From: an archaeon | GTDB taxonomy: Archaea > Nanobdellota > Nanobdellia > Pacearchaeales > GW2011-AR1 | DNA length: 64,000 nt | Assembly (NCBI GenBank): GCA_018651605.1 | Contig: JABIDS010000013.1 | Location: 717 to 64,716, forward strand | Reading direction: 5' to 3' | Shown here: one piece after another, positions 13,802-64,000 of the stretch | Layout: every line of letters begins with the position of its first letter | Numbering within the stretch: the first letter of the stretch is position 1 | The notes under the pieces: generated by a model | The model's database searches: none | What the model was told of the DNA's origin: nothing | The model's input: only the letters and a program-made list of their open reading frames with translations | Program-made: the position numbers and the translations under genes

Positions 13802-13930
13802 AGCTCTGTTGAGTTGTTAGTTTCGTGATTTCAAAATCCCACTAACTTCGACTATCGTCGAAACCCTCCCTTACCACCCCACCGCACCCCCCAATTTATT
13901 TTGTGAAATCACTAAACTTTAAACAGAGCT
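13802..13930. repeat. intergenic long imperfect palindrome with an internal hairpin and a C-tract core
   Basis: Left arm agctctgttgagttgttagtttcgtgatttcaaaat, right arm attttgtgaaatcactaaactttaaacagagct. Internal perfect hairpin ttcgac-tatc-gtcgaa. Core ccctcccttaccaccccaccgcacccccc. Confidence 0.7.
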
Positions 13931-33600: not shown

Positions 33601-34521
33601 GAGAAAACTCAGGTTGAAGAAGGGATAAAGCAGCAGCAGATATTATTTTACAAAGAGAATAAGATTTCTGAGAATGAGTATAAATTGCAGTTTAAGATTT
33701 TTAATGAGAGATTGGCGGAGATTGAAGGAGAGAGGACAACCTTGGAATTGTTGAGGGAAACTTCTAAAACAAATAATAAAAATGTTCTTTTGAAGGAGAA
33801 TAAAGTTAAACTTAAGCGAAATATTGTAAAGGCTGAAAAGAAAATTAAAACTCGTGGAAGCTATGTTGATATTTTTAATAAAGTTAAATATGGGTTTTTT
33901 GGATTGTTTGTAAATCCTGTTAAATATGTTAAGAAAAATCTAGAGAGAAAAAGGTTTAGGAAGGAAAATGAAAATAAGTTAAAGGTAGATAAAATATTGA
34001 ATGGAGATTCTAAAAGTGAAAAAAGTTTGCAAGAGAAATCTAAAAATTCTGAGAATTTAAAATTGATTGTTGATAAGGGTAAAAAGGCTGTTTCTAGTTT
34101 GAATCTCTTTAGATATGTTAGGGAAGATAGAGATAGAAGAATGTTTAATGTTGAGAAAGAAAATAAATTAAAGATAGATGCGTTGTTAAATAATAGGAAA
34201 ACTGAAGTTGAAATTGAAGATGATTTAAGGAAGAAACAAGTATTGAAAGATAAAGGAGTTAAAGAATCTTTGAAGTTTCAGGCTAGAGAAAGAAGGAATG
34301 CGAAATTTAGAACTATAAAAAATAATTTGGCCTTGAAATCTGAAAGAATTGTTAGGGGTATTGGTAAGGGAATTAGAAAATTAAATCCTTTTAAGTATAA
34401 GAAAGCAAGGTTTAATATATTTAATTATTATGCTGGATATAAGGAAAGAATGAGATTAAAAGAGGAAGCTAGAGTTAGAAAAGAATTAAATAAATTGTTT
34501 GAAGAGAAGTGGAAAAGATGA
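27634..34521 (+). CDS. giant surface protein (2295 aa): about a dozen Ig-like repeat modules, TM helix, and a ~650-aa Lys-rich coiled-coil cytoplasmic tail. No signal peptide of its own
   Basis: Repeats of ...P(V/A)ITI.SP.N.SY...W.GY.LN......W......L..G.YN..F.ANDS.GN...S...F. Dense N-x-S/T sequons. GGGGGGS linker. TM helix LYLYWYFVLGFIIIFSASSLVGY. The tail carries repeated NKIS(E/G)..Y motifs. The N-terminus MDNITVSH is not hydrophobic. Confidence 0.8.
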   Translation: MDNITVSHSVIQGGDTITIWANTTSHGVNDSDADTLQLFCDDTIAPTFVNSDCTGGITSDGSYPYALTCTFVVPSDDVAHVEYCRVYDGIAYSNVSNVTYTTDSTSPSLSIVSVAGDSVVSYYDSVDDSVSVINVSGEESMSCRWSSSDLSYSAMSNACSTNGIYTACNVNDVVSQGYTTRYVSCQDNYTNGNNATNNLNVNFYLDYTAPTTSDDSSSTIIAPNYVVTLNEGDNVDSDVITLYCTDTTNTCAPSLSIDDGGTVTFTSANRGVNYLRYNSTDDAGNQQITVSKTININELPVFSSASDDAVIIAGEAEVNVSTISSDSDGSQTLTLWVCDSTSVTSSGCGGGHYCNTSVSSGVNLSCNFSSESDSALHNWYAFIYDALGEIAVANFSGSYTTDSDGPEITIVNPANDTFTNDDITAQIVLNEGGSLAWYELDGNGTNVTMSNSSTTSWNINIYNLSLGNHNLTFWANDSYGNVGVSAMRYFEIALPLDTTPPAITILSPVNGSYQTASGVYINISADEVLKGAWYELNYNGTKIGLSNYTSSNWYVDISLSEESEYNLTIWANDSSDNENTKNISFYVDSLAPRYSSVSALPSIANVSQDVNCSINWIDGFNLSSVKISENSSGTFENHTIGSLELGGSASYNIVGNKLNGVGSYECRFYAVDSAGNFNSTSVSFSVNDVTVPVITVTSPSNATYNQNYLDVSLIVSENSSWAGYSLNGASNVTMENTSMTNWNRTLTGLSNGGYNIIFYANDSSGNMANSSLIHFAINTGAADTTAPVITIDTISNASYKTATSVVVNVTTNENADWVGYKLNSGSLTDMSNLTSAIKWNVTLTGLVVESSNDLEVYANDSADNDGSKNITFYVDSVAPRITNISASPSPANESQNVVCNAYVNDTFSLSSVKIEENASNSGTFENHTLDLSASGWMNYTILNVEKGANYTCRFYAIDAAGNVNNSELITFVVNDVTAPVITINSPLNQNYSTDNILLSVSLSEDAVVDVNYTIDGGVTNVSLSGSGSSWSDSVIFADGSKTVTFYASDSSWNNASNSVTFNVDTSVNDVTAPAITVWSPLNNSYDIDGTVLLNISTNEDLSWAGYSNNSADLIDLDNVSTTYWNASVVFDEGQHNLTFYANDSSSNKNQGSKGFVLYVDLTNPDVEGFSCGDVNDSLDVVCSANVSDEIGLSYAVVGYNFTGSWQNSSQISLSSVSSSLNYVIASGNSSPGVFGAEIYLFDLSGRQNLTVSDLVTISDDTLPLFSNISYVPNVTDDLDPGVLVNVSVAVNEDYNISSVELMYKNSSSADWSSIVMSNGSALTYLVASNVTYNASFVVQNETWYFQINATDSEENSAFSSNYTLLVDDDISQNISTTIPLTKSITYAQRTSNNSLGYLIMNNTGDSSLNFNITLNSSDSGVLSRLSVNYSRNQTANFSAGSLSDVNITIDVNTTDLSAGLYDYNISVASESGTEVFARGLNIQTAAGPLLSTLITTYSSNVTKGENDVELVATVTNLGTADASNVLLNWTLPSDLSLASGSLSRNLGTLGVGISGTNTVTINVASSAGDANVNISADATSSNADSSSISKIITIGSPSVVTTTVGGTVSSGGGGGGSVGDEGGVSQSYVKTVEIIRGGEDIFTIDVYNKYPNSTLNDVTLSLSGYDEHYFEFSPQKISGIKYNETKSFKVKLTAPSYKSYEENILKAMINGDLIQNGASRTYSETQNIRLLIQEVSLEKIIISLDEAEKAIQKMKEAGFNVDEVERFLEEARIKLKDNRNKQAWDLSENIIEINNLAFEVDTLINNVFAVLSNPRKKSVLTQGTGFKGSGFSVKEFFLDSPALEMVNLARVAFERGDYELAKKRADSARSLLLFSMKGNFGLFLYLYWYFVLGFIIIFSASSLVGYRKYKKSSITQRIGQFDNEENNIRKLVLNSQRRYFAGKISEGDYHATINQHRKRLANIKKFRINLRNKRIKMLKPRDIIKDLEEEKTQVEEGIKQQQILFYKENKISENEYKLQFKIFNERLAEIEGERTTLELLRETSKTNNKNVLLKENKVKLKRNIVKAEKKIKTRGSYVDIFNKVKYGFFGLFVNPVKYVKKNLERKRFRKENENKLKVDKILNGDSKSEKSLQEKSKNSENLKLIVDKGKKAVSSLNLFRYVREDRDRRMFNVEKENKLKIDALLNNRKTEVEIEDDLRKKQVLKDKGVKESLKFQARERRNAKFRTIKNNLALKSERIVRGIGKGIRKLNPFKYKKARFNIFNYYAGYKERMRLKEEARVRKELNKLFEEKWKR

Positions 34522-35892: not shown

Positions 35893-38544
35893 ATGGTGAA
35901 TTGGCATGTTTTGTCGAGTAAAGAAGTGATTGAAAAATTAGGTTCTGATATGAAGGGACTTAGTTCTAAGGATGTTGATAAGCGGTTGAAGAAGTATGGG
36001 AAGAATGTTCTGAAGAAAAGTGGGCATTTTGATTTTTTGAAAGTTTTTTTAAATCAGTTTAAATCTTTTTTGATTTTGATTTTGATTTTTGCAGGTGTTG
36101 TTTCTTTTTTTATGCATTCGCGGATTGATGCTATTGTTATTTTTGCGATTATTATTTTGAATGCTTTTTTGGGGTTTTTTCAAGAGTATAAGGCTGAGAA
36201 GGCTATTGAAGAATTGAGAAAGATGATGGTTTCTTTTGCAAGGGTTTTGAGAGATGGTAAATTGATTGAGATTGATTCTAAGGGGGTTGTTCCTGGAGAT
36301 ATTTTGATTTTGAGAGAGGGTGATAAGATTGTTGGGGATGCTAGGATTTTGAAGTCAGAGGGTTTGAAGATTAATGAGGCATCTTTGACTGGAGAGAGTG
36401 TTTCTGTTGAGAAGATTGTTAAGAAGCTTGGAGAGAATGTTGCTCTTGCAGATAGGGTGAATATGGTTTATCAGGGTACAGAGGTTGTTGCAGGAAGTGG
36501 TGTTGCTATTGTTGTGAATACTGGAAGGAATAGTGAGTTTGGTAAGATTTCTGAGATGGTGCAAAAGGTTGAGTCTGAGAAGAATCCTTTTAGAGATAAG
36601 CTGGATAAGTTTGCACAGAAGATTGGGATTTTTATTTTGATTTTATCTGGGTTGATTGTTGGTTTGTTGATTTTTGAAGGTGTTGAGGTTTTTCAGTCTT
36701 TTTTGGTTGCAGTTAGTTTGGCTGTTTCTGCTATTCCTGAAGGATTGCCGGCTGTTATTTCTTTGGGTTTGGCTTTTGCTACTCGTAGAATGATTAAGAA
36801 AAATGTTTTAATTAGAAAATTACCTGCGTCTGAAACTTTGGGCAGGGTTACTGTTATTTGTACTGATAAGACTGGGACTTTGACTGAGGAGAAGATGAAG
36901 GTTTCAGATATTTATGTTGATGGGAAATTAAATTTTCCAGGTTCTAAGAATAGTAAGTTGTTGTTTAAGATTGGTGTTTTGTGTAATAATGCTCGGTATG
37001 GTGAGAAAGATGGTAAGAGGGTTTTGATTGGAGATCCTACTGAAAATGCGTTGATTGAAGTTGCTGAAGATAATTTTTTGGATATGGGGAAATTGATTGA
37101 GAATGAGAAAAAGGTTAAGGAGTTTGCTTTTAGTAGTGGAAGGAAGATGATGTCTGTTGTTCGTAAGAATAATAAGGGTTTGGTTTCTTATGTTAAGGGC
37201 GCTCCTGAGAGGATAATTGATAAAAGTAATTATGAGCTTGTTAATGGTGTGAGGGTTAAGTTGGATGAGAAGGGAAGGGAAAGGTTGATGGAGGTTTATA
37301 GAAAAATGGCTAAGAGTGGTTTGAGAGTTTTAGGTTTTGGGTATAAGGAGATAGGGAGTTTATCTAAGGCGGAATCTTTTTTGAAAGATTCCGAGGCCCA
37401 CCCGCCCACCCGCGATTTGATGAGTATCGCTGAAAGTGAATTAATTTTTGTAGGATTTCAAGGAATGATTGATCCTCCTCGGAAAGAGGTTAAGAATGCG
37501 ATTAAATTATGTAATGATGCTGGGATTAAGGTTTTGATGATGACTGGAGATTCTAAGTTGACTGCTGAAGCGATTGCTGAGGATATTGGTTTGAAAGGAG
37601 ATTCAGTAGGTGTTGCTGAATTGCATAGTATGAGTAATGTTGATTTGTTGAAAAGGATTGATGATATTTCTGTTTTTTCAAGAATTACTCCTGAAGATAA
37701 ATTGAGGATTATTAATATTTTGAAAAAGAAGAATGAGATTGTTGCGATGACTGGTGATGGGGTTAATGATGCTTTGGCTTTGAAGAGGGCGGATATTGGG
37801 ATTGCGATGGGGATTCGTGGGACTGATGTTGCTCGGGATTCTTCGGATATTGTTTTGATTGATGATAATTTTGCTTCGATTGTCGAGGGTGTTAGGGAAG
37901 GGAGGACGATTTATGATAATGTTAAGAAGTTTGTTAAGTATTTGTTGTCTGCGAATTTTTCAGAGGTTGTTTTGGTTTTGATTGTTATGTTGATTTGGAG
38001 GGATGCTAGATTTTTGCCATTGTTGCCTTTACAGATTTTATGGATTAATTTGATTACAGATAGTTTGCCTGCTTTGGCTTTGAGTTCTGAAAAAATGGAG
38101 GATGATGTTATGAAGAGAGCGCCTTCTGGTGAGGGAATTTTGAAAGGGATTAAGAGTTTTATTTTTGTTGCAGGTTTGATTGCTGTTTTAATTGGGTTTT
38201 TGTTTTTTTATATGAATAAGGGAGACATGGATTATGCTAGAACTATGGTGGTTTCGTCGTCGATTGTTTTTGAGATGTTTTTGGTTTTTAATTGTAGGAA
38301 TAATGGATTTGTTTTTAGTAATGGTGGTTTTTTTGGAGGTTTGAAGAAGGGAATTTTTGGGAATAAATATTTGATTTATGCTGTTTTGGTTTCTATTGGG
38401 TTGCATGTTTTTGCGATTTATAGTCCTCTTGGTGGTTTGTTTGGGTTTGTTAGGTTGGAGTTGATGGATTGGGTGTGGTTGGTAGGGGTTGGGCTTGTAG
38501 GGTTTGTTGGGGTTGAGGTTTTCAAAGGCTTGAATCGGGGGTGA
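35893..38544 (+). CDS. P-type ATPase, type II (Ca2+/cation-transporting, SERCA/PMCA-like)
   Basis: TGES, PEGLPAV (TM4), DKTGTLT, MTGDSKLTA, TGDGVNDALALKRADIGIAMG; about 10 TM helices. Confidence 0.9.
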   Translation: MVNWHVLSSKEVIEKLGSDMKGLSSKDVDKRLKKYGKNVLKKSGHFDFLKVFLNQFKSFLILILIFAGVVSFFMHSRIDAIVIFAIIILNAFLGFFQEYKAEKAIEELRKMMVSFARVLRDGKLIEIDSKGVVPGDILILREGDKIVGDARILKSEGLKINEASLTGESVSVEKIVKKLGENVALADRVNMVYQGTEVVAGSGVAIVVNTGRNSEFGKISEMVQKVESEKNPFRDKLDKFAQKIGIFILILSGLIVGLLIFEGVEVFQSFLVAVSLAVSAIPEGLPAVISLGLAFATRRMIKKNVLIRKLPASETLGRVTVICTDKTGTLTEEKMKVSDIYVDGKLNFPGSKNSKLLFKIGVLCNNARYGEKDGKRVLIGDPTENALIEVAEDNFLDMGKLIENEKKVKEFAFSSGRKMMSVVRKNNKGLVSYVKGAPERIIDKSNYELVNGVRVKLDEKGRERLMEVYRKMAKSGLRVLGFGYKEIGSLSKAESFLKDSEAHPPTRDLMSIAESELIFVGFQGMIDPPRKEVKNAIKLCNDAGIKVLMMTGDSKLTAEAIAEDIGLKGDSVGVAELHSMSNVDLLKRIDDISVFSRITPEDKLRIINILKKKNEIVAMTGDGVNDALALKRADIGIAMGIRGTDVARDSSDIVLIDDNFASIVEGVREGRTIYDNVKKFVKYLLSANFSEVVLVLIVMLIWRDARFLPLLPLQILWINLITDSLPALALSSEKMEDDVMKRAPSGEGILKGIKSFIFVAGLIAVLIGFLFFYMNKGDMDYARTMVVSSSIVFEMFLVFNCRNNGFVFSNGGFFGGLKKGIFGNKYLIYAVLVSIGLHVFAIYSPLGGLFGFVRLELMDWVWLVGVGLVGFVGVEVFKGLNRG
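37370..37430 (+). repeat. hairpin / C-tract / hairpin block inside the P-type ATPase N-domain loop
   Basis: cggaatcttt-tttg-aaagattccg (37370-37393), gcccacccgcccacccgc (37396-37413), gcgat-ttgatgagt-atcgc (37411-37430). It encodes ...ESFLKDSEAHPPTRDLMSIA... in frame. Confidence 0.55.
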
Positions 38545-42186: not shown

Positions 42187-43488
42187 ATGGTTAGTGAGAA
42201 AATACAGAGAAAAAGAGAAGATAGAACTAATTCTTTTTCTCTGTCTGTTCAAATCCCAAGAAAATCACGATCTAAAGATCGTGATAATGTTTTCAGGGAT
42301 TTGAACATTATTCGGGCGTATGCATTGAAGAATGCTGTTGAGCATGAGGGTTTGGCTGTTGTTGGAAATGTTGTTCCTGGATTGTTTAATCATGGTTTGA
42401 AAAAAGAAGGTGTTGGAAAGATTATGCCTTTGGTTAAAGATGTTGTTGCAGAGATTAATGGTTTGAGTGTGGAGGAGCAAAAGGTTTTGTTTAAGAAGTA
42501 TGAGGATTTGGTTGGGCATCGTGTGGAGCGTGAGGGTTTACATGCATTGAAAGTTGGACGTAATGGGATTGTTACTCGGTTTTCACCGTCTGCATCTGGA
42601 GGTTTTCATATTGGACATGCTTTGACTGGGAGTTTGTCGTATTTGTATTTTAAAAAATATGGTGGAAAGTTTTATGTTCGGATTGAGGACACTAATCCTG
42701 ATAATAGTTTTAAGGATTCTTATAAAATGATTAAGGAAGATTCTAAATGGTTGTTTGATGGTGATGCTGAGATTGTGATTCAGTCGGAGAGAATGAATTT
42801 GTATTATAAGTATGTTGAGAAGTTGATTAAGAAAGGAAGTGCTTATGTTTGTGAGTGTAGTTCTGAGGAGTTTAAGAAATTTGTCGAGGGAAAGGTTGAT
42901 TGTGGTTGCAGGAGTTCTAGTGTTAAGGAGAATGTTTTGAAGTGGGGACAGATGTTGGATAAGAAGGGTTATGAGGTTGGTGGGGCTGTTTTGAGATTTA
43001 AATCTGATATGACTGATAAGAATCCTGCGATGAGGGATTTTCCTTTGGCTCGAATTAATTTGAATAAACATCCTTTGCAAGGAAAAAAATATAGGGTTTG
43101 GCCTTTGATGAATTTAGCTGTCGCTGTTGATGATATTGAAATGAAGATGACACATATTATTCGGGCGAAGGATCATAGAGATAATGCTTTGCGTCAGAAA
43201 ATGATTTTTGAAGTTTTAGGAAAGAAGTTTCCTTGGACTGGTTTTCTTGGGAGGATTCATTTTAAAGATATGGTTTTGTCGACGAGTGAGATGCGAAATG
43301 GTGTTGAAGACGGGAAGTTTTCAGGGTGGGATGATGTTAAGTTGCCTACTTTGGTTTCCTTGAGAAAGAGAGGATATAATCCGGGAGCTTTTTGGAAATT
43401 TGCTGAACAGATTGGTTTGAATGAGATAGATAAGAAAATGGATAAGAAAGAATTTTTTTTAATGTTGGATGGATTTAATCGAGGGTGA
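42187..43488 (+). CDS. gltX: archaeal-type glutamyl-tRNA synthetase, N-terminal and catalytic domains only (the anticodon-binding domain appears absent)
   Basis: HIGH motif (SGGFHIGHALTG), YVRIEDTNP, WPLMNLAVAVDD, IIRAKDH, LSTSEM (KMSKS equivalent), GWDDVKLPTLVSLRKRGY. The ORF stops right after the ...FAEQIGLNE... region, and the pilin promoter follows. Confidence 0.8.
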   Translation: MVSEKIQRKREDRTNSFSLSVQIPRKSRSKDRDNVFRDLNIIRAYALKNAVEHEGLAVVGNVVPGLFNHGLKKEGVGKIMPLVKDVVAEINGLSVEEQKVLFKKYEDLVGHRVEREGLHALKVGRNGIVTRFSPSASGGFHIGHALTGSLSYLYFKKYGGKFYVRIEDTNPDNSFKDSYKMIKEDSKWLFDGDAEIVIQSERMNLYYKYVEKLIKKGSAYVCECSSEEFKKFVEGKVDCGCRSSSVKENVLKWGQMLDKKGYEVGGAVLRFKSDMTDKNPAMRDFPLARINLNKHPLQGKKYRVWPLMNLAVAVDDIEMKMTHIIRAKDHRDNALRQKMIFEVLGKKFPWTGFLGRIHFKDMVLSTSEMRNGVEDGKFSGWDDVKLPTLVSLRKRGYNPGAFWKFAEQIGLNEIDKKMDKKEFFLMLDGFNRG

Positions 43489-45585: not shown

Positions 45586-47046
45586 TTATAATTTTTTCCC
45601 CATATAAACTTTATTTTTATCTAATTTATATTTTAGTTTTTTGTAGTATTCTCTGACTCCAACTCCTGAGATTATTTGTAGGTTTTTGATGTTGTGTTTT
45701 TTTGTTATTTGTTCGGCTTCGTGGATTAATTGTTTTCCTAAACCTGTGTGTTGTCCAAGGTGTTTTGGTTTTTGTCCTATGGAGAGAGATTGTCCGTAGA
45801 CATGGATTTCTCTTATGATTGCCTTACTATTTGTTTCAGCATTATCAATCCCAATAACCCCTCCCACCCGCCCGTTGTTGGGATAATACTGAAACTTATC
45901 TTTCTGATTTGTTATTCTTAATCTAAGAAGTGCGAAAAGAATGTTTTGGTTGTTTGTTATTTCTAGAAAGTATTCTGTTCCATTTTGTGCTTGGTATTTT
46001 GTTGTTTTGAGTTTTAGTTTTGGATTTATTTTTTGGTTTTTTTGAAGGTCTCTAATATGGAAACCTATTTCTCTGAATCTTATTTCGTTTATTTTTGTTT
46101 TTGATTGTTTTAGGTTTTGTTCTATGTCTCTTCTTAAGTCTATTCTTGTTGTTCCTGCTGTTAGAAATTCTGGAGGAATTTCTCTCATTACTCTCATTAC
46201 TCTGCAATAATTTGGAATTATTTTCATTATTTGGATTATTAATTCTTGGATTTGTTCTTTTGAGTAAGGTTTGTATTTTTGTTTTTTGTGGGTTTTTTCT
46301 AATTGACTTCCTTTGATTACTTGACAAGGATAGATTTTTAATTGGTCTGGTTTGAAGTCTTGATTTTTGAAAAGTGTTTCAAAGGTTTGTAAATCTTTTT
46401 TTGGATTGCTTTTTGGTAAGCCGAGCATCATGTGATAGCCGATTTTGAATCCTGCGTTTTTTAGTTGATGTGTGGCTTGGATTACGTCTTCAACTGTGTG
46501 TCCTCTGTTTACTGCTTTGTATATTTTATTGTCTAGACATTGAACGCCTAGTTCTACTCTTGTGCATCCGTAGTTTAGGATTTTTTGAATTGATTTTTGG
46601 TTTATTGAATCTGGACGAGTTTCTATGCAAAGTGCAACGCATCTGTGTTTTGCTTTTTGGTTTAGTTTTTTTGCTTGTTCTAATGTTTTGGATTGTTTTT
46701 TATTTAATGCGTCGTAGATTTGTTTTATGAAATTGTTTTGATATTTTGTTGGGAAGTTTAGGAAGTCTCCTCCCATGATTATTATTTCTATTTTTTCTGT
46801 TGGATGGTTCATTAAGTTGAATGCTTTTAATCTTGATTTTACTTGTTCTTCTGCGTTGTATTTTAGGATTTCTGCTCTTAGAACTGGCGGAGATTTTGGA
46901 GTATATGATTGTGGAACGTTTAATGATGGGCAGTAGGTGCATGTTCCGTGTTTGCATTTTTTTGGTTTGCACATTACTGCGATTGGTGTGACGCCTGCTA
47001 AGGTTTTTGATGGTTTACGTATTTCTCCTTGTTGTGGGATTTTCAT
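45586..47046 (-). CDS. elp3: Elp3-family radical-SAM / GNAT tRNA U34 carboxymethyl-transferase homolog
   Basis: N-terminal VTPIAVMCKPKKCKHGTCTYCPS, a radical-SAM TIM-barrel region, and a C-terminal GNAT block IREIHVYGQ...HTGLGKQLIHEAE...ISGVGVREYYKKLKY. Confidence 0.85.
   Translation of the reverse strand: MKIPQQGEIRKPSKTLAGVTPIAVMCKPKKCKHGTCTYCPSLNVPQSYTPKSPPVLRAEILKYNAEEQVKSRLKAFNLMNHPTEKIEIIIMGGDFLNFPTKYQNNFIKQIYDALNKKQSKTLEQAKKLNQKAKHRCVALCIETRPDSINQKSIQKILNYGCTRVELGVQCLDNKIYKAVNRGHTVEDVIQATHQLKNAGFKIGYHMMLGLPKSNPKKDLQTFETLFKNQDFKPDQLKIYPCQVIKGSQLEKTHKKQKYKPYSKEQIQELIIQIMKIIPNYCRVMRVMREIPPEFLTAGTTRIDLRRDIEQNLKQSKTKINEIRFREIGFHIRDLQKNQKINPKLKLKTTKYQAQNGTEYFLEITNNQNILFALLRLRITNQKDKFQYYPNNGRVGGVIGIDNAETNSKAIIREIHVYGQSLSIGQKPKHLGQHTGLGKQLIHEAEQITKKHNIKNLQIISGVGVREYYKKLKYKLDKNKVYMGKKL
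45833..45895 (-). repeat. in-frame palindromic G-tract element (diverged copy) inside elp3
   Basis: + strand: gtttcagcattatcaatcccaataacccctcccacccgcccgttgttgggataatactgaaac. It has 14-bp terminal inverted repeats (1 mismatch) and is 63 nt = 21 codons. It encodes QYYPNNGRVGGVIGIDNAE. Confidence 0.75.
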
Positions 47047-48670: not shown

Positions 48671-50068
48671 TCATTGCAACAACCTAATAAATTGTTCCCA
48701 TTCGTATCTTAATTTTTTTAGGGTTGATGTGCTTTTGTAGATGTTGTAGTCTGTAGTGTAAATTCTATTTTGATTGTTGTAGATTTTATTGAAATAATCA
48801 TTTGTTTGTTTTGTTATTGAGGAGTTGTTTGGTGATGTGATTTTTATGTCTGATTGTAAGTTGTAAAGTCTTATGTTGTTGTTTGCGATGTTTGTTGAAC
48901 CTGTTAGAATGGTTGTATGGGTTTGATTGGTTATTGTTATGAGTTTTGTGTGGAATTGTTCTCCGTGAGATTTATACCAACGAATGTTTATTTTGTTGTT
49001 TGATTCTTTGAGGAGTTTTTCTGCGACTGGTTTGTTTGGTATTCCAAATTTTTGTTGTGAAAAGAAAAAGTCGTTTGTATCTAAGATTATGTTTATGTTT
49101 GCTCCTCTTTTTGATGCTTGGATTAATTGGTTGGTTGTTTTTTTGTCTGATAAAGTGAACATTGCTATGTTTATTGTATGTTCTTGGTTTGTTTTTGATA
49201 GTTCTTTTTTTAGTGAGTGCATTAGTCCGTTGTCGGCTAGGTATTGGACTTTTATTGGTTTATTTTCCCCTTCTCCTTCGGCATTATCAATCCCTATTAA
49301 CCCACCCATCCCACCCTTAATTGGGATAATGCCTTCATCCCCTCCAACAGGCTCTTGAAAGTTGTCTATAAAACTTTGAATTTGTTGATTGTTAATGTTT
49401 GCATCTTTTATTTCTAGGTTGTAAACATCTTGCCAGATTTTTTCTTTGATTAATATTGCAGTGTTTGAGTTTGGACTGCTCTGATCGTGAGGGTTTGCTG
49501 ATGTGATTAGGGTGTGGATTTGATTGTTGTTATCTGCGATTATGAATTTTCTATGGTTTAGTCTTTTTTTTGCTTTTTTGAGGAGATAGTTTGTTATTGG
49601 ATTTTTATTTATGGGGGTGTAGATTATGTTTATGTTGTTTTGTTCTAGTTGGTTTATGAATGGTTTGTTGTATGGTTTGTTTATTATGTTGAATTTGTCT
49701 GTTATGAAGTAGATAGGCATGTTTGGATTTGATTGTTTTTTGTTTATTAGTTGGGTTGTTAATTCTTGGGTTAGGTTTTTTAGGTGTGGTTCTTTTGTTG
49801 TTCCGAATAAGAACATGTTTATTATTATGAAGTTTTCTGCGTTTTGGATTATATTGTAGGTTTTGTTGAAGATTTCTTGGTTGTATTGGATGTTTTGGTT
49901 TTTATCTTCATAGGTTAAGTCTGAAAGGAATTGGATTGAATCTTCTGAGATTTGGTGGGTTGGACTTATGATGGTTCTTCCTTTTGGTAGTGAGATGTAG
50001 TAGATTAAAATTAGGATTATTAAGAGGGAGATTATGGTTAGGAGGATTTTTATAGTTCTCTTTTTCAT
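48671..50068 (-). CDS. phospholipase D / cardiolipin-synthase-family protein (two HKD motifs) with an N-terminal TM anchor
   Basis: HRKFIIAD...TSAN and HTKLITIT...GSTN; TM helix IKILLTIISLLIILILIYYI. Confidence 0.8.
   Translation of the reverse strand: MKKRTIKILLTIISLLIILILIYYISLPKGRTIISPTHQISEDSIQFLSDLTYEDKNQNIQYNQEIFNKTYNIIQNAENFIIINMFLFGTTKEPHLKNLTQELTTQLINKKQSNPNMPIYFITDKFNIINKPYNKPFINQLEQNNINIIYTPINKNPITNYLLKKAKKRLNHRKFIIADNNNQIHTLITSANPHDQSSPNSNTAILIKEKIWQDVYNLEIKDANINNQQIQSFIDNFQEPVGGDEGIIPIKGGMGGLIGIDNAEGEGENKPIKVQYLADNGLMHSLKKELSKTNQEHTINIAMFTLSDKKTTNQLIQASKRGANINIILDTNDFFFSQQKFGIPNKPVAEKLLKESNNKINIRWYKSHGEQFHTKLITITNQTHTTILTGSTNIANNNIRLYNLQSDIKITSPNNSSITKQTNDYFNKIYNNQNRIYTTDYNIYKSTSTLKKLRYEWEQFIRLLQ
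49280..49333 (-). repeat. in-frame palindromic G-tract element inside the PLD-family gene, between the two HKD halves
   Basis: + strand: ggcattatcaatccctattaacccacccatcccacccttaattgggataatgcc. It is 54 nt = 18 codons and encodes GIIPIKGGMGGLIGIDNA. It is 53/54 identical to 53029-53082. Confidence 0.85.
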
Positions 50069-50832: not shown

Positions 50833-51993
50833 ATGAAAACAGAAAATGCAAAGGGATTTAAAGATGCTGAGAATGCGTTGAAGAAAATTCAGATAAGAAA
50901 TATAATCGAGCAGACGTTTCAATTGTATAATTTTATTCCAGTTGAAACTCCTATAATAGAATATGAAGAATTTGTAAAGGGAGAGAATCCTAATGATGAG
51001 GCTGTTTCAGATATTTTTAAGTTGAAGGATAAGGGTAAGAGGGATTTGGCTTTAAGATATGAGTTTACTTTTCAGTTGAAAAGATTGGCTAAAAATAAAA
51101 AGCTTCCTTATAAGAGATATCAGATAGGTCCTGTATTTAGGGATGAGCCTGTAACTGGAAATAGGTGGAGGCAATTTACTCAATGTGATATAGATGTAGT
51201 TGGGGCAAGTGTTAAAGATGAGGCAGAAATTTTGAGGGCAACTTCAGATATTTTGAAGAAATTGAAGATTGATTTTGTGATTAATATTAATAATAGGAAA
51301 TTGTTGAATGAGATTTTGGAAGAGTTGAAGATTTCTGAGAAAAATAAGTTGCAAGTAATTAATGAGATAGATAAGTTGGATAAGCTTTCTGAATCTGAGG
51401 TGAAAAGGAATTTGAAGAAGTATGGGGCTGAGAAACTTTTGGCTGTTTTTAAGAAGCCTGAGTCTTATTTTAAGAAGTATGAATCTTATGCGGATGTGAA
51501 GGAGTTGAAGAAGTTTTGTTTGTATTATGGGATAAAGGTTAATTTTCAGGCTTTTTTGGCGAGGGGTTTGTCTTATTATAATGGTTCTATTTTTGAAATT
51601 AAATCTAAGAATTTGAAAGAGACTATAATTGCTGGTGGTTCGTATATGGTGAATAATGTTCAGGCGACTGGGATTTCTTTGGGTTTGGAGAGATTGGAGC
51701 TTTTGGCTAATGTTTCTATGAATTATAAAAAGGTTTTAATTATTTCCTTGAATCAGGATAAGATTGCTGTTGGTGTTGCGGATAGTGTTCGTGAGTTAGG
51801 TATTCCTGTTCAGATTTTGTTTGGTAAAGTTGGAAAGGCTCTTGAGTATGCTAATTCTTTGGATATGCCTTTAGTTGTTTTTATTGGTGAAGAGGAAGTT
51901 AAGAAGGGGAAGGTTAAGTTGAAGAATATGAATAGTGGTAAGGAGAAGTTTGTTTTAATGTCTAAGTTGGGGAAGGAGTTGGAGGGATTGTAG
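50833..51993 (+). CDS. hisS: histidyl-tRNA synthetase
   Basis: GFKD...IRNIIEQTFQLYNFIPVETPIIEYEE, FKLKDKGKRDLALRYEFTFQLKR, YQIGPVFRDEPVTGNRWRQFTQCDIDVVG (class II motif 2), GGSY (motif 3 region), and a C-terminal anticodon-binding fold. Confidence 0.88.
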   Translation: MKTENAKGFKDAENALKKIQIRNIIEQTFQLYNFIPVETPIIEYEEFVKGENPNDEAVSDIFKLKDKGKRDLALRYEFTFQLKRLAKNKKLPYKRYQIGPVFRDEPVTGNRWRQFTQCDIDVVGASVKDEAEILRATSDILKKLKIDFVININNRKLLNEILEELKISEKNKLQVINEIDKLDKLSESEVKRNLKKYGAEKLLAVFKKPESYFKKYESYADVKELKKFCLYYGIKVNFQAFLARGLSYYNGSIFEIKSKNLKETIIAGGSYMVNNVQATGISLGLERLELLANVSMNYKKVLIISLNQDKIAVGVADSVRELGIPVQILFGKVGKALEYANSLDMPLVVFIGEEEVKKGKVKLKNMNSGKEKFVLMSKLGKELEGL

Positions 51994-52091
51994 TTGTGGG
52001 TGTTGGTGTAGGTTTGGTTGGTGGGTGTTGTGGGTTCTCGCGACTGGACAAGTCCAAGTCGCTTCACCTTGCAGTCTTGAAATCTTTTTAG

Positions 52092-52137
52092 AGATTTTAT
52101 TGAGGTTATGAGTTTTCTTTTTGGTTGTTGATGAGAT
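52092..52137 (+). repeat. dispersed ~45-nt intergenic repeat, copy 1
   Basis: agattttattgaggttatgagttttctttttggttgttgatgagat versus 54246-54289 agatttattggggtatgagttttctttttgattgttgataggat (about 40 of 46 positions). It is preceded by the GC-rich hairpin gcgactggac-aa-gtcca(a)gtcgc at 52040-52062. Confidence 0.7.
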
Positions 52138-52189
52138 ATATAGTTTGTGTTGCAATTAATTTTATTAATGTTTATGTTCGTCTAAATTT

Positions 52190-52429
52190 ATGTCTGATCA
52201 AAAAATCCTTCCTGGAAATATTTATCTTAATATTACTAGGGCAAGTGCAACTCGTAAATTAAGAGTTGATATTTATAAGGTTCTTGATGGATCTCATATG
52301 TCTCATGGAATAAGTCATGGTAAGAATTATGGGAGTTTTTTTCTCCAAGATGAAAGGGGTTTGGATAGAGATTTGTCTGAAATGACTGTTTCAGAATTAG
52401 TTGAGATGGTGGAAGTTAATTTAGAATAA
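52190..52429 (+). CDS. hypothetical protein
   Basis: 79-aa ORF with a TATA-like box about 25 nt upstream. Confidence 0.4.
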   Translation: MSDQKILPGNIYLNITRASATRKLRVDIYKVLDGSHMSHGISHGKNYGSFFLQDERGLDRDLSEMTVSELVEMVEVNLE

Positions 52430-52431
52430 TT

Positions 52432-53643
52432 TTATTCTCCATAAACTCTCTGCACCTTTTCTTTAAATTCTTTAAATGTTCCTTTTTTGATATGTTCTTT
52501 GGCTTGTTTGATTAAATTTTGTAAATAGTAAAGATTATGGTAAGATGCTAAATGTTTTCCTGTAGGTTCTTCTTGTTTTAAGAGAAATCTTATATAGGCT
52601 TTTGTGTAGTTTTTGCATGTTTTGCAATTGCAGTTTTTGTCTATAGGTGTTTTATCTGTTTCATATTTTTTGTTTAGGAGTTTGAGTTTTCCTTTTGATG
52701 TGAAGAGTGTTCCTCTTCTTGCGTTTTGAGTTGGAAGTCTTGAGTCGAATATATCTACTCCGTAGGAGATTGCTTCAAGTATTTCTGATGGGGAGCCTAT
52801 TCCCATTAAGTAAACTGGTTTGTTGTTTGGAATGATTGTTTTTTGTTGTTTGACTATTTTCATTTCTTCTTGAAATGTTTCTCCCATTCCAAAACCTCCT
52901 ATTGAGTATCCGTCAAAGTTGAGTTTTGTTAATTCTCGTGCTGATTGTTTTCTTAAATCTTTATGGATTCCTCCTTGAGTTATTCCGAAGAGAAGTTGTT
53001 TTTTTGTTTTATTCCTTTTTTCCCTTTCGGCATTATCAATCCCTATTAACCCACCCGTCCCACCCTTAATTGGGATAATGCCTAAACCTTTTTTACCCCT
53101 CCTTTGCAATTTGTCATGGGTTTCTTTACATCTTTTTGCCCAATTTGTTGTTAGATTTACTGCTGTTTGTATTTCTTTTTTTGAATCTTCATATAATGGC
53201 ATTCTATCTAAACACATTGCAACATCGCTGTTGATGTCTGTTTGTATTTTCATGTTTTCTTCAGGTGTCATGAATATTTTTTCTCCTGAGATTGGGTTTT
53301 TGAATGTAACTCCTTTTTCATTTGATTTTATGTAGATTGATGGTGAATACATTTGAAATCCTCCGGAATCTGTGAAGTTTATTAATTGTGTGTTCATGAA
53401 TTTTTTTATTCCTCCTAGTTTTTTTATTGTTTTTGTTCCAGGTCTTAAAGATAGAATGAATGCGTTTGAGATTGTTGCTGTTGCTCCTAGTTTTTTTAGT
53501 TGTGATTGTGTTAAGAATTTTGCTGCTGCTTTTGTTGAGACTGGCATAAAAAAAGGTGTTTGGATTTCTCCTGATTTTGTTATTAGTGTTGCGATTCTTG
53601 CTTTTGTTTTTTTGTCTTGATGGGTTATTGTGAATGGTTGCAT
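52432..53643 (-). CDS. tgt: tRNA-guanine transglycosylase, catalytic domain only; resembles the bacterial/eukaryal queuine-type Tgt
   Basis: TPFFMPVSTKAA, ISNAFILSLRPG, DRMP, LFGITQGG, DGYSIGG, YLMGIGSP, DIFDSRLPTQNARRGTLF, and the Zn motif CNCKTCKNY...H. There are no C-terminal PUA or ArcTGT-specific domains. Confidence 0.85.
   Translation of the reverse strand: MQPFTITHQDKKTKARIATLITKSGEIQTPFFMPVSTKAAAKFLTQSQLKKLGATATISNAFILSLRPGTKTIKKLGGIKKFMNTQLINFTDSGGFQMYSPSIYIKSNEKGVTFKNPISGEKIFMTPEENMKIQTDINSDVAMCLDRMPLYEDSKKEIQTAVNLTTNWAKRCKETHDKLQRRGKKGLGIIPIKGGTGGLIGIDNAEREKRNKTKKQLLFGITQGGIHKDLRKQSARELTKLNFDGYSIGGFGMGETFQEEMKIVKQQKTIIPNNKPVYLMGIGSPSEILEAISYGVDIFDSRLPTQNARRGTLFTSKGKLKLLNKKYETDKTPIDKNCNCKTCKNYTKAYIRFLLKQEEPTGKHLASYHNLYYLQNLIKQAKEHIKKGTFKEFKEKVQRVYGE
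53029..53082 (-). repeat. in-frame palindromic G-tract element inside tgt
   Basis: + strand: ggcattatcaatccctattaacccacccgtcccacccttaattgggataatgcc. It is 54 nt and encodes GIIPIKGGTGGLIGIDNA, just upstream of the conserved LFGITQGG block. Confidence 0.85.
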
Positions 53644-62173: not shown

Positions 62174-64000
62174 CTATATCTCTATAGAGAGCACCTTACT
62201 AATCCCCTCCTGCATACTCACCCCATATAAAATATCACTCGACTCACTAATAATCGAATCATTATGTGTAATCACAATATATTGCCCTTGTTTCATATTC
62301 TTTTTGAACAAATAAGCAAGTTTCTCACTATTTCTTCTATCTAATGCGGCATCAATTTCATCAAAGATATAGAAACAATAAGGTTTGAGTTCTTGAATTG
62401 CGAATATCAATGATAAAGCCACAAGGGTCTGTTCTCCTCCTGATAAAGACGTGACATCAAAGATTTTCCTACCTGACATTCTTACGATGATGTTTAATCC
62501 TTTTTCAAAGACATCTTTTTTATCTTGGGGTTCTATTGTTACGATTCCTTTGGTGCTGAGTTGACTAAAATTACGAGAGAATAGGGTGTTGATATCTTTT
62601 AATGTTGTTAGAAATGCTTTCTTTTTCTTTTTATCTATTTGTTCAATGATTTTTAGGATTTCTAATTTTTCTTCATCTAATTGGTTTACTTTTTCTTTTA
62701 TTTTGTCGTATTGTTCTTTGATGCCTTCGTAAACTTCTAATGCTCTAAGGTTGACGTTTCCTATTCTGTTAAGTGTGTTTTCTGAGTTGTTTAGTTTTTC
62801 TTTTAGTTTTTCTAAGGGTAGGCTGATGAATTCGATATCTGCGAATTCTTCTAAATCTTGTTTAAATGTGTCGATTCTTGCAGTGATTTGTGCTTTGATA
62901 ATCATAAGGTTGTTTATATCATTTTCAATTAATCTTTTGTTGTTCTGGACTTTCATTAATTCTGTTTCTAAAATTCTTGATTTGTCTTGAAGGATGTTTT
63001 TTTCTTCAAACATTTTTTGATATTTATTTTTTAATTTATCTGCTTGACTTTCTTTTATATTTGTTTTTTCTTGCTTTTCTTCTATTGTGATTGTGATTTC
63101 TTTTAGGTCTTCTGTGATTTCTTGTTTATCTCTAATGTTTTGTTTAATTGCTAATTTTATTCTCTCTAGTTCTCTTTGTTTGGTTGTTATTTCTGCTCCT
63201 AAGTTTCTTTCTTCTGTTCTTTCTAATTCATTAACTTCTAATTTTAATTTTTCATAATCTTCTTCACTCATTTTAATTTTAGAGAATTGATTTTCTAGTG
63301 TTTGTTTTTTTGTTTTAAGATTCTTTAATTCTTTTTCTAAATCTTGGATTTGTTCTGAATCTCTTTTTAATTGTTGTTTTTTGTCCTCGATTGTTTGTAA
63401 TTTTACTATGTCTATGTTTCTTGTATTTATTTCCATTGCTTGTTTTGCTATTGTTTGTTTTAATTCTGATAGGGTGTTTTTGTTTTCTTTAATTTTTTCT
63501 TGTGTTGTTTGAATTAATTGTTTTGATGTTTGAATTATTTTATCTGATTTATCTTTGACTTCTTTTATATGTTTTTCTGTGATGTTTGTTTTACATAATG
63601 GACATGTGTCTAATTCTGAGACTTGTTTTTTTATTTTTTCAGCTTCACTTATTTTTTGTTCTTCTACTGCGAATATTTTTTCTTTTTCTATTAGTTTTGT
63701 TTCTATTTCTTGGTTTTTTTGTTTGTTTGATTCTAAATCTGAGTTTAGGTGGATAAGTGCTTGTTTGTGGTGATTTATTGATGTTGTAGTTCTATTAGCT
63801 CCACCCCTTTTTTCAAACGTCATTTTATTATTTGTTGCACCCGCCCGCGAACCACCCTTAAATGAATGACGTTTGAAATCTCCACCCCCAATAGCATGAT
63901 TTTCAAACTCTCCTTTTATTTTAATTTCTTTCTCAATCTGTTCAATCTGTTCAACAATAAAGTTTGATTCATTCTTTAGTCTTTGAATTTGTCTTTCTTT
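62174..64000 (-). CDS. smc: SMC-type chromosome-segregation ATPase, C-terminal ~608 aa (N-terminus outside the window), with a Rad50-like CPLC hook motif
   Basis: C-terminal head: NRIGNVNLRALEVYE, LSGGEQTLVALSLIFAIQELKPYCFYIFDEIDAALD, QYIVITHND, ILYGVSMQEGISKV. This is SMC-type rather than Rad50-type. My own translation shows the frame stays open from 63823 up to nt 64000 (KERQIQRLKNESNFIVEQIEQIEKEIKIKGEFENHAIGGGDFKRHSFKGGSRAGATNNK-MTFEK...). Confidence 0.85.
   Translation of the reverse strand, partial: KERQIQRLKNESNFIVEQIEQIEKEIKIKGEFENHAIGGGDFKRHSFKGGSRAGATNNKMTFEKRGGANRTTTSINHHKQALIHLNSDLESNKQKNQEIETKLIEKEKIFAVEEQKISEAEKIKKQVSELDTCPLCKTNITEKHIKEVKDKSDKIIQTSKQLIQTTQEKIKENKNTLSELKQTIAKQAMEINTRNIDIVKLQTIEDKKQQLKRDSEQIQDLEKELKNLKTKKQTLENQFSKIKMSEEDYEKLKLEVNELERTEERNLGAEITTKQRELERIKLAIKQNIRDKQEITEDLKEITITIEEKQEKTNIKESQADKLKNKYQKMFEEKNILQDKSRILETELMKVQNNKRLIENDINNLMIIKAQITARIDTFKQDLEEFADIEFISLPLEKLKEKLNNSENTLNRIGNVNLRALEVYEGIKEQYDKIKEKVNQLDEEKLEILKIIEQIDKKKKKAFLTTLKDINTLFSRNFSQLSTKGIVTIEPQDKKDVFEKGLNIIVRMSGRKIFDVTSLSGGEQTLVALSLIFAIQELKPYCFYIFDEIDAALDRRNSEKLAYLFKKNMKQGQYIVITHNDSIISESSDILYGVSMQEGISKVLSIEI
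63800..63889 (-). repeat. palindromic C/G-tract element inside the smc coiled-coil region, flanked by 9-nt direct repeats
   Basis: Perfect 14-bp inverted repeat tttcaaacgtcatt (63811-63824) / aatgacgtttgaaa (63865-63878). The loop contains cacccgcccgcgaaccaccc. ctccacccc occurs at 63800-63808 and at 63880-63888. Confidence 0.7.

Follow-up and report, generated by a model that had tools for sequence, protein, structure and literature searches.

A probable Rickettsia-type palindromic repeat family with a G-quadruplex-motif loop in coding genes of a DPANN archaeon

Results

This study concerns a short palindromic repeat found within conserved genes on the minus strand of a 64-kb stretch of archaeal DNA (contig JABIDS010000013.1; "the window" hereafter means the whole stretch of 64,000 nucleotides that was analysed). 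Four minus-strand genes carry the repeat or a related insertion: a PLD-family membrane protein gene, a gene (tgt) for a bacterial-type tRNA-guanine transglycosylase (TGT), an Elp3 gene and an SMC gene (Table 1). The best match of the window TGT in the PDB is the T. maritima enzyme (2ash), and the closest TGT and PLD relatives carry the names Pacearchaeota or Nanoarchaeota. Judged by these sequence relationships, the host is a DPANN archaeon with a bacterial-type tgt. In JGI metagenome 3300072015 the window lies on a contig of 90.6 kb.

The core of the repeat is a 54-mer, GGCATTATCAATCCCTATTAACCCACCC(A/G)TCCCACCCTTAATTGGGATAATGCC, for which an exact pattern search returned exactly two matches in the window, one in the PLD-family gene and one in tgt, and none in 100 dinucleotide-preserving shuffles of the window. 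The two copies are identical at 53 of 54 positions, the A/G being the sole difference, and each comprises 18 codons, free of stops and read on the sense strand as GIIPIKGG(M/T)GGLIGIDNA. The predicted fold is a stem of 8 bp + 9 bp, with one A.A mismatch and a 4-nt ATTG bulge, closed by a 16-nt loop. On the sense strand this loop reads GGGTGGGA(T/C)GGGTGGG (codons GGT GGG A(T/C)G GGT GGG), a G-quadruplex (G4) sequence motif that overlaps the Gly codons of the PLD/TGT frame. The flanks of the two copies are also related, with 87 nt aligned at 88.5% by gapped blastn. A first-pass annotation of this DNA had described the near-identical pair, the 8 bp + 9 bp stem with its 16-nt tip, the sense-strand G4 motif in both genes, the stop-free reading of 18 codons and the related flanks; these descriptions were borne out by the pattern search and shuffles, the fold prediction, the loop sequence, the translation of the open reading frames (ORFs) and blastn, respectively. 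It had placed the element in the PLD-family gene and tgt, and both locations are confirmed, but the window contains two further copies, in Elp3 and SMC. Its unit of 54 nt proved too short, as the footprints measure 72-81 nt. In the coding copies the inserted unit spans ~70-100 nt, with short G-rich direct repeats on either side.

Comparison with orthologs indicates that the segment is a lineage-specific insertion. It is absent from all 24 TGT orthologs (63-81% identity; 372-417 aa, mostly 372-381 aa) and from all 14 PLD orthologs. The window TGT has 27 additional codons between DKLQ and K..K.QLLFG, where TGTs in the PDB show the same gap, and the window PLD protein has 24 additional codons. 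A syntenic sister contig from the same metagenome as the window (JGI 3300072015) encodes Elp3, PLD, TGT and SMC proteins of 460, 440, 374 and 946 aa, compared with 486, 465, 403 and 1006 aa in the window, and codon-level alignments to this sister contig (L087) and to another relative (L088) leave clean gaps of 81 nt in TGT, 72 nt in PLD and 75 nt in Elp3. The first-pass annotation had allowed that the peptide might prove ancestral, present at the same site in PLD and Tgt orthologs, or be an artefact of assembly. What was found is that the orthologs of both proteins lack it, and that the PLD copy is unchanged in a contig from an independent assembly (ENA ERZ4200978, NODE_5174; L064), which is 99.96% identical to the window over 5136 nt (window 53029-47894). 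The proposal of a discrete element, inserted or copied without destroying its host proteins, is thus supported by the orthologs without the insert, by the pairing of the stems in the Elp3 copy and by the invariance of the catalytic residues. As a separate observation, the independent contig, a low-coverage SPAdes product, has its first position at window 53029, exactly the boundary of the TGT copy; repeat-induced breakage, a drop of coverage over the hairpin/G4 or population heterogeneity are possible reasons.

The copy in the Elp3 gene (AGTATTATCCCAACAACGGGCGGG-TGGGAGGGGTTATTGGGATTGATAATGCT) was found by translated search (tblastn) and sensitive blastn. Its 5' half is read in another frame (QYYPNNGRVGGVIGIDNA), as QYYPNNGRV and not as GIIPIKGGM, and its 3' half in the same frame, as GGVIGIDNA. 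Because the 5' half is read in the other frame after a 1-nt deletion, the homology resides in the DNA and not in the peptide. The TTAA of the PLD/TGT core is CAAC in the Elp3 copy, and therefore no TAA stop arises in the Elp3 frame. Compared with the Dmc and Min Elp3 structures, the window Elp3 has 14-17 extra residues. The three copies served to build a covariance model (R1), which detected no other copy in the window, intergenic DNA included. The SMC gene contains a related palindromic insertion, with a perfect 14-bp stem (TTTCAAACGTCATT / AATGACGTTTGAAA), a G-rich 40-nt loop (AAGGGTGGTTCGCGGGCGGGTG) and a perfect 9-nt direct repeat (GGGGTGGAG) on both sides, so that 72 nt plus the 9-nt repeat amount to 81 nt. 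It follows the design of the other copies with different stems, and the protein segment that it encodes is Gly-rich and lies midway along the coiled coil. Inserts are present in 4 of the ~7 minus-strand genes of the window versus none of its ~40 plus-strand genes. No in-frame stop occurs in any coding copy (PLD, TGT, Elp3, SMC and the XPF copy described below).

Outside the window the family is represented by four copies in two low-GC archaeal sources (three contigs), three of them intergenic and one in an XPF gene. A metagenome scan with the exact loop AAGGGTGGGNNGGGTGGGTT returned 59 loci, all chance G-rich matches except one (L018), an intergenic 12-bp hairpin with the identical loop that adjoins FEN-1 on a 31%-GC archaeal contig. 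A GTDB scan with the shared TTATCC arm and G tracts gave two matches in the Nanoarchaeota metagenome-assembled genome JAHIVP01 (L066, L067), and the hairpins concerned (L066a and L067) are near-perfect, A/T-rich and located immediately 3' of stop codons. The covariance model added a copy on the first of these contigs (L066b, 2098-2149), which lies in frame within an XPF/ERCC4 nuclease gene (EINNPIKREGGLGFYGIS), at a place where the protein has ~33 residues beyond P. furiosus Hef or A. pernix XPF; for the 5' half of this copy yet another register is used. The RNA sense varies among the intergenic copies, with the G face in some transcripts and the C face in others. No Rfam family matches the element, phage and plasmid records gave no match, and among viral contigs there were few matches, none with the stems of the element. 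At the peptide level, a 44-aa tandem peptide returned nothing from 5.8 billion clusters, a weak negative as the window's own proteins were evidently missed too, and a 30-aa window peptide had no match among 1.84 billion representatives, the short query limiting sensitivity. One candidate was judged a coincidence and rejected. In a groundwater VWA-domain gene (L017 2623-2669 / L048 4001-4047; GGCATTATC..AACCCACCCATCCCACCC), 29 bases, made up of the searched 20-nt loop motif and GGCATTATC, match the C-rich face of the element at the same offsets; the stretch is native coding sequence (GIIYIGNPPIPPF) and, read from the opposite strand, encodes a native beta-strand of the VWA domain. Separately, six Mucilaginibacter loci (L070, L071, L076, L079, L082, L084), three of them in one chromosome, share a recurring TTATCCCTCC..GGGAGGG(C/T)AGGGAGGGGT, apparently an unrelated repeat of these bacteria with a core that resembles a G4.

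The family signature is an A/T-rich stem, TTATCC...GGAT..ATAA, and an apical loop of four G3 tracts separated by spacers of 1-2 nt. The arms are 8 + 9 bp in the window copies or form stems of 12-14 bp, and seven copies contain the motif G3N1G3N1-2G3N1G3, the SMC copy having three G3 tracts and one GG. All four G3 tracts are intact in the Elp3 copy and in the XPF copy, both of which were found without requiring them, with spacers that vary. When folded as DNA, every copy gives a hairpin whose loop contains the G tracts (z-scores -1.7 to -6.1). The RNA fold energy of the 54-mer is unexceptional (z about -1.2), and the structural case therefore rests on covariation. The three window copies in PLD, TGT and Elp3 alone contain three compensatory pairs (G-C to A-U, U-A to A-U and A-U to C-G). 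In an alignment of seven copies 95.8% of cells are paired and 12 of 17 pairs have changed on both sides, counts that are inflated by the fitting of this alignment to the model structure; none of 500 shuffles paired as highly, and sliding the partners lowered pairing to ~50%.

The orientation of the copies is uniform with respect to strand composition. The plus strand of the window contains 9.2% C and 23.4% G, with a GC skew of +0.16 to +0.59 across all 4-kb bins, in line with the C-starved strand of the first-pass annotation. The skew is 0.44 in the sister contig, 0.36-0.46 at element-bearing loci and 0.10-0.18 in other relatives. In 8/8 copies the G-rich face lies on the G-poor strand, which has ~9-10% G against ~20-24% in its complement (window, L018, L066, L067), and of the short-loop G4 motifs in the window four are on the G-poor strand and none on the G-rich strand. 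As the G face runs against the compositional bias, mutation pressure cannot explain the orientation. Since every G-rich face is on the G-depleted strand, insertion or retention would be polar with respect to replication, which suggests strand-specific insertion or selection on which replication template carries the G4. Two further observations concern the skew itself. It is independent of gene orientation, the coding strand having 19-35% G and 5-11% C in plus-strand genes and 9-15% G, 14-25% C and 44-51% A in minus-strand genes. As the cumulative skew is monotonic, the window contains neither origin nor terminus, and a replication origin (origin recognition box, ORB) was rejected on this ground and on the lack of an orc1/cdc6 gene.

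The inserts are predicted to be disordered Gly-rich loops that the host proteins probably tolerate. The AlphaFold model of TGT has a pLDDT of 87 and falls below 50 only at residues 186-212, which correspond to the insert, and that of PLD has a pLDDT of 85 and falls below 50 only at the insert (residues 243-268) and in a short stretch (336-342). The TGT insert is located between helix 155-186 and the strand leading into the ITQGG motif, which by TIM-barrel geometry would place it on the barrel's N-terminal face, distant from the catalytic one. The PLD insert lies in the linker between the two HKD domains, and that of Elp3 falls within the GNAT domain, in a variable loop that precedes the HVYG strand. 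Residues D92, D146 and Q223 of TGT and its zinc site C338/C340/C343/H369 (CxCxxC...H) are invariant, as are H172/K174 and H373/K375 of the two HKD motifs of PLD. An ortholog from another DPANN lineage (P0093) has a different insert, of 13 residues (GLMKISPTRPTLG), in the same TGT loop (alignment columns ~240-255), which suggests that this loop is a recurrent insertion hot spot.

Beyond these copies, the window contains one isolated G4 motif, a candidate remnant or relative, next to a perfect 9-bp hairpin (GGAATCTTT/AAAGATTCC; window 37360-37440) without stem homology to the family. The motif lies within a plus-strand P-type ATPase gene, at a segment of 15 residues extra to Listeria LMCA1, and may be a decayed relative read from its C-rich face.

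Table 1. Host genes, repeat cores and insertion footprints in the window. R1, covariance model built from the PLD, TGT and Elp3 copies.
Feature	Position	Strand	Evidence and details
PLD-family membrane protein gene, two HKD domains, 465 aa	48671..50068	-	Pfam (PLDc_2)
Approximate full PLD insertion footprint	49265..49351	-	Core and G-rich flanks GGAGGGGATGAA / GAAGGAGAAGGGGAA; codon alignment with L087, protein alignment
Hairpin core with G4-motif loop, PLD-family gene	49280..49333	-	Peptide GIIPIKGGMGGLIGIDNA; R1 85.7 bits; same in L064
tgt gene, bacterial-type TGT, 403 aa	52432..53643	-	Pfam TGT 7e-131
tgt insertion footprint, 81 nt = 27 codons	53020..53100	-	AGGGGTAAAAAAGGTTTA + core + GAAAGGGAA; codon alignment with L087, L088
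Hairpin core, tgt gene	53029..53082	-	Peptide GIIPIKGGTGGLIGIDNA; R1 84.7 bits
Elp3 gene (radical SAM + GNAT tRNA-modification enzyme), 486 aa	45586..47046	-	PDB 5l7j, 5e-115
Elp3 insertion footprint, 75 nt = 25 codons	45832..45906	-	Bounded by 7-nt direct repeat AACAAAT; codon alignment with L088 Elp3
Elp3 copy, diverged, 53 nt, ~82% identical, 1-nt loop deletion	45838..45890	-	R1 76 bits, E 1e-20
SMC gene, runs past the window end	62174..64000	-	
Related palindromic insertion, SMC gene	63799..63888	-	Inverted-repeat search; DNA fold z = -3.3
Isolated G4 motif GGGTGGGCGGGTGGG, candidate remnant or relative	37397..37411	- (G-poor)	R1 9.7 bits, loop only

Discussion

The best explanation of these results is that the 54-mer is the core of a short palindromic repeat family in some Nanoarchaeota/Pacearchaeota (DPANN) genomes. 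We consider it likely that this family is non-autonomous, resembles the Rickettsia palindromic elements (RPEs), and is tolerated and putatively translated inside genes. In such a scheme the element would spread to new sites at the DNA level, and in gene-dense genomes many of the target sites would be coding. The survivors would be those insertions that keep the frame, are read through the element without a stop and sit in permissive surface loops or inter-domain linkers. Surviving copies would then be part of the host gene's transcript and protein, in which they would form a disordered Gly-rich loop of ~25-30 residues and leave the enzyme intact.

RPEs measure 105-150 bp, and many housekeeping genes contain them in frame (Ogata et al. 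2000; as recounted in PMC10969869 and PMC2229807). Like them, the present repeats are palindromic, probably non-autonomous, and found both between genes and in frame in unrelated conserved housekeeping genes of a reduced-genome organism, with inserts predicted to be compatible with the host fold and several sub-families of different ages. The first-pass annotation had also named the RPE as an analogue. RPE-like here denotes a functional class, and the family is set beside RPE-1 to RPE-10 by description, with a unit of about half the size. Its palindromic unit is repeated four times in the window and four times at other loci; stop-free, in-frame insertions absent from orthologs are found in PLD, TGT, Elp3, SMC and XPF; and the intergenic copies are L018, L066a and L067, with none in the window itself. 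RPEs differ in being bacterial and, as those accounts describe them, in lacking a G-quadruplex loop or reported strict polarity, whereas the present family is archaeal, with a core of ~54 nt, a footprint of 72-81 nt, a four-G3 loop and one orientation in 8/8 copies.

An archaeal precedent is provided by the palindromic coding repeats of M. jannaschii (Suyama et al. 2005, cited in PMC2229807). These too, in the form in which they are cited there, are archaeal palindromes that can lie within ORFs, although from a different lineage, that of a euryarchaeal methanogen, and the first-pass view that no such element had been described in archaea is therefore not accurate. We know of no G4 loop described for the M. 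jannaschii repeats. In the literature that we searched, neither hairpin repeats with a G4 tip nor insertions of this kind are reported from DPANN archaea. Palindromic repeats inside coding genes are thus already known, archaea included; what appears to be new is the loop with its G4 motif, the small unit size, a polarity that is strict in genomes of extreme skew, and the DPANN host range.

Other classes of short repeat share some of these features. Repetitive extragenic palindromes (REPs) with their associated tyrosine transposases (RAYTs) and hairpin elements of the IS200/IS605 type (palindrome-associated transposable elements, PATEs) are moved as single-stranded DNA by HUH Y1 transposases. 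The present family resembles them in its short hairpin unit, in its intergenic copies at gene ends and in the orientation bias relative to the replication strand that transposition as single-stranded DNA would be expected to produce, and which is seen here in 8/8 copies. REPs (super-families in PMC3733652) differ in being extragenic with G+C-rich stems, whereas the present family has A/T-rich stems and intragenic copies. Moreover, a GTAG/CGTC head is absent, the element ending in GGCATTAT or TTTTTATCC, and no Y1_Tnp domain was found in the window; should the direct repeats in the flanks be target-site duplications, they would speak against a single-stranded mechanism. Transposable elements of the miniature inverted-repeat type (MITEs), such as the 107-bp form of Correia/NEMIS and ERIC, also include in-frame ORF fusions (according to PMC2229807 and PMC10969869), and share with our family a small inverted-repeat form and one stop-free frame fused to host ORFs. 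MITEs are, however, defined by terminal inverted repeats that match a parent insertion sequence and by target-site duplications. Terminal inverted repeats are present here in the form of the stem arms, but the duplications are ambiguous and no transposase domain that could mark a parent insertion sequence was found in the window ORFs scanned or in the JGI gene calls. Finally, mitochondrial GC clusters and repetitive hairpin elements (RHEs), for example those of sponges (PMC2800124), are G+C-rich hairpins that have invaded a compact A+T-rich genome, coding regions included. They differ in being organellar, and the kept frame and stop-free reading of our copies imply read-through translation. 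Some organellar hairpins of this sort, the yeast mitochondrial byp elements, are bypassed in translation.

Several results weigh against an RPE-like mobile family. Neither ORF domain scans nor JGI gene calls revealed a transposase or another mobilising gene in the window, and no polymorphism of empty and filled sites was seen within one species. The 64 kb contain only four copies, which lie within 18 kb of one another and exclusively in minus-strand genes, a distribution that fits local copying too, and five related Pacearchaeota have none in ~88 kb of syntenic DNA. Two GTDB scans (the TTAAGGGTGGGNNGGGTGGGTTAA scan with 0 matches) and one metagenome scan gave no more copies of this sub-type, which suggests that the family is either rare or fast-evolving. 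Perfect flanking direct repeats are confined to SMC (9 nt) and Elp3 (7 nt), those of PLD, TGT and XPF being imperfect and G-rich; the G-rich repeats are of GGAGGGG or GGGGTGG types. Because the flanking repeats are alike between copies they may belong to the element, so that target-site duplication is ambiguous; the flanks are also purine-rich and of low complexity. The PLD and TGT cores are 98% identical and their flanks differ by indels, which simple recent transposition does not predict, and gene conversion of the core is possible. Lastly, the inflated pairing counts of the seven-copy alignment lessen the weight of the covariation.

A more specific form of mobility would make the family a hitherto undescribed, replication-polar class of mobile hairpins in DPANN archaea of extreme skew, with the G4 tip as part of the mechanism and a preference for insertion, in one orientation, into genes of the G-depleted strand. 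The tip could be recognised, or serve in priming, on the single-stranded DNA of the fork, or be captured at stalled head-on genes. We hold this only tentatively, as a possibility that is on balance doubtful; if it were true, polar hairpins would have added Gly-rich loops to the core enzymes TGT, Elp3, SMC, XPF and PLD.

It is also conceivable, though unlikely, that the copies arose by local, non-mobile copying, in which ectopic gene conversion, or a template switch at a stalled fork, duplicated one palindrome between minus-strand genes that are neighbours, without a dedicated mobility mechanism and with no genome-wide family. Hairpin and G4 sequences promote template switching at stalled forks, and the window copies lie close together, in the same orientation and in head-on (minority-strand) genes; the near-identity of the PLD and TGT cores amid differing flanks, the lack of a transposase in the window and the absence of a copy from related syntenic loci would all be expected. 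What local copying does not account for is that three contigs of two further sources carry related TTATCC/G4/GGATAA hairpins at loci unrelated to these, intergenic as well as coding. In addition, the divergence of the Elp3 and SMC copies is much greater, and indicates several events over time.

A cis-acting signal selected by the host, for example a strand-polar site for a replication or segregation protein or an mRNA structure that tunes head-on genes, and found in coding sequence because intergenic space is scarce, seems to us quite unlikely. Such a signal would fit the strict polarity, the maintenance of G tracts and stems against a strong opposing mutational skew, the adjacency of the intergenic copies to stop codons and the spacing of three window copies at 3.4-3.8 kb. 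However, close relatives possess these genes without the element, and no essential conserved function can therefore be tied to these sites. The copies are moreover clustered and not spread across the 64 kb, the RNA sense is not constant among the intergenic copies, and no Rfam family matches.

Removal of the segment after transcription or its skipping in translation, as an archaeal bulge-helix-bulge intron or a byp-like bypass element, is very improbable. The hairpin potential is strong, DPANN archaea are known for unusual tRNA introns and the insert is dispensable in orthologs, but all five coding copies are stop-free and preserve the frame, Elp3 by a frame-compensating deletion and the loss of TAA, and excision or bypass is disfavoured since a removed segment would face no frame or stop constraint. 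The predicted folds have a single 4-nt bulge on the 3' arm only, not the 3-nt/4-bp/3-nt geometry of a bulge-helix-bulge, and an intron of this type was rejected for that reason, as was an intein because of its size. A shared protein module, that is, a Gly-rich peptide selected at the protein level through independent acquisition or domain shuffling, is highly improbable: although the PLD, TGT and in part the XPF peptides are alike (IPIKGG.GGLIGI versus NPIKREGGLGFYGI), the Elp3 DNA is conserved across a 5' half in a different frame, intergenic copies exist, the inserts are predicted to be disordered, and the peptide was found in no protein of the cluster and representative sets, within the limited sensitivity of a short query. 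An assembly or chimera artefact would suit a metagenomic source and a contig break exactly at the TGT copy edge, but is close to negligible given the identical PLD copy in the independent ENA assembly, the one-base difference between two copies with intact ORFs, and the divergence of the third and fourth.

If the RPE-like reading is correct, ultra-small, gene-dense DPANN archaea have been colonised, as Rickettsia has, by selfish palindromic DNA that survives inside essential genes, and such colonisation may be a general outcome of genome reduction where intergenic space is scarce. The family would also offer a natural test system for G4 structures, as a very strong short-loop motif is positioned at a hairpin tip, within ORFs, on one replication strand and against a mutational skew that should erase it. 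The tips may form quadruplexes, with which the hairpin would compete through its flanking arms only, and the palindromes may extrude as cruciforms. In such a system the effects of G4 motifs on archaeal replication, transcription and translation become directly testable. Furthermore, the inserts inflate the loop lengths of marker proteins and could serve as lineage markers.

Additional observations

Several other features of the window were recorded. HisRS and TGT are each individually inverted relative to the syntenic sister contig, with gene order kept (window 50833-53643 versus L087), and the synonymous codon endings of TGT follow the gene strand, being A/C-ending in the window and G/T-ending in the sister. 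A Glx-tRNA synthetase ORF of 433 aa (397 aa in the sister) has two adjoining palindromes in its first 40 codons (42198-42307), first with 19-nt arms (89% complementarity) and then with perfect 12-nt arms (TGTTCAAATCCC/GGGATTTGAACA) that enclose an inner 10-bp palindrome; this may represent a different palindromic insert family in a plus-strand gene. On the G-poor strand, a G-rich island (GGGGGGTGCGGTGGGGTGGTAAGGGAGGG) with a short hairpin after it (TTCGAC GATA GTCGAA) lies at 13862-13897, between genes for an HxlR-type regulator and a ferredoxin-domain protein. Two giant ORFs (198-8090 and 27634-34521; 2630 and 2295 aa) consist of repeat units of ~258-300 nt with the motif W(A/V)NDSAGN, and are probably surface proteins with tandem Ig-like domains. 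The segment 43574-45581 contains four tandem small paralogous genes of 132-150 aa, whose DNA repeat units are 70-78% identical and which have no Pfam hit.

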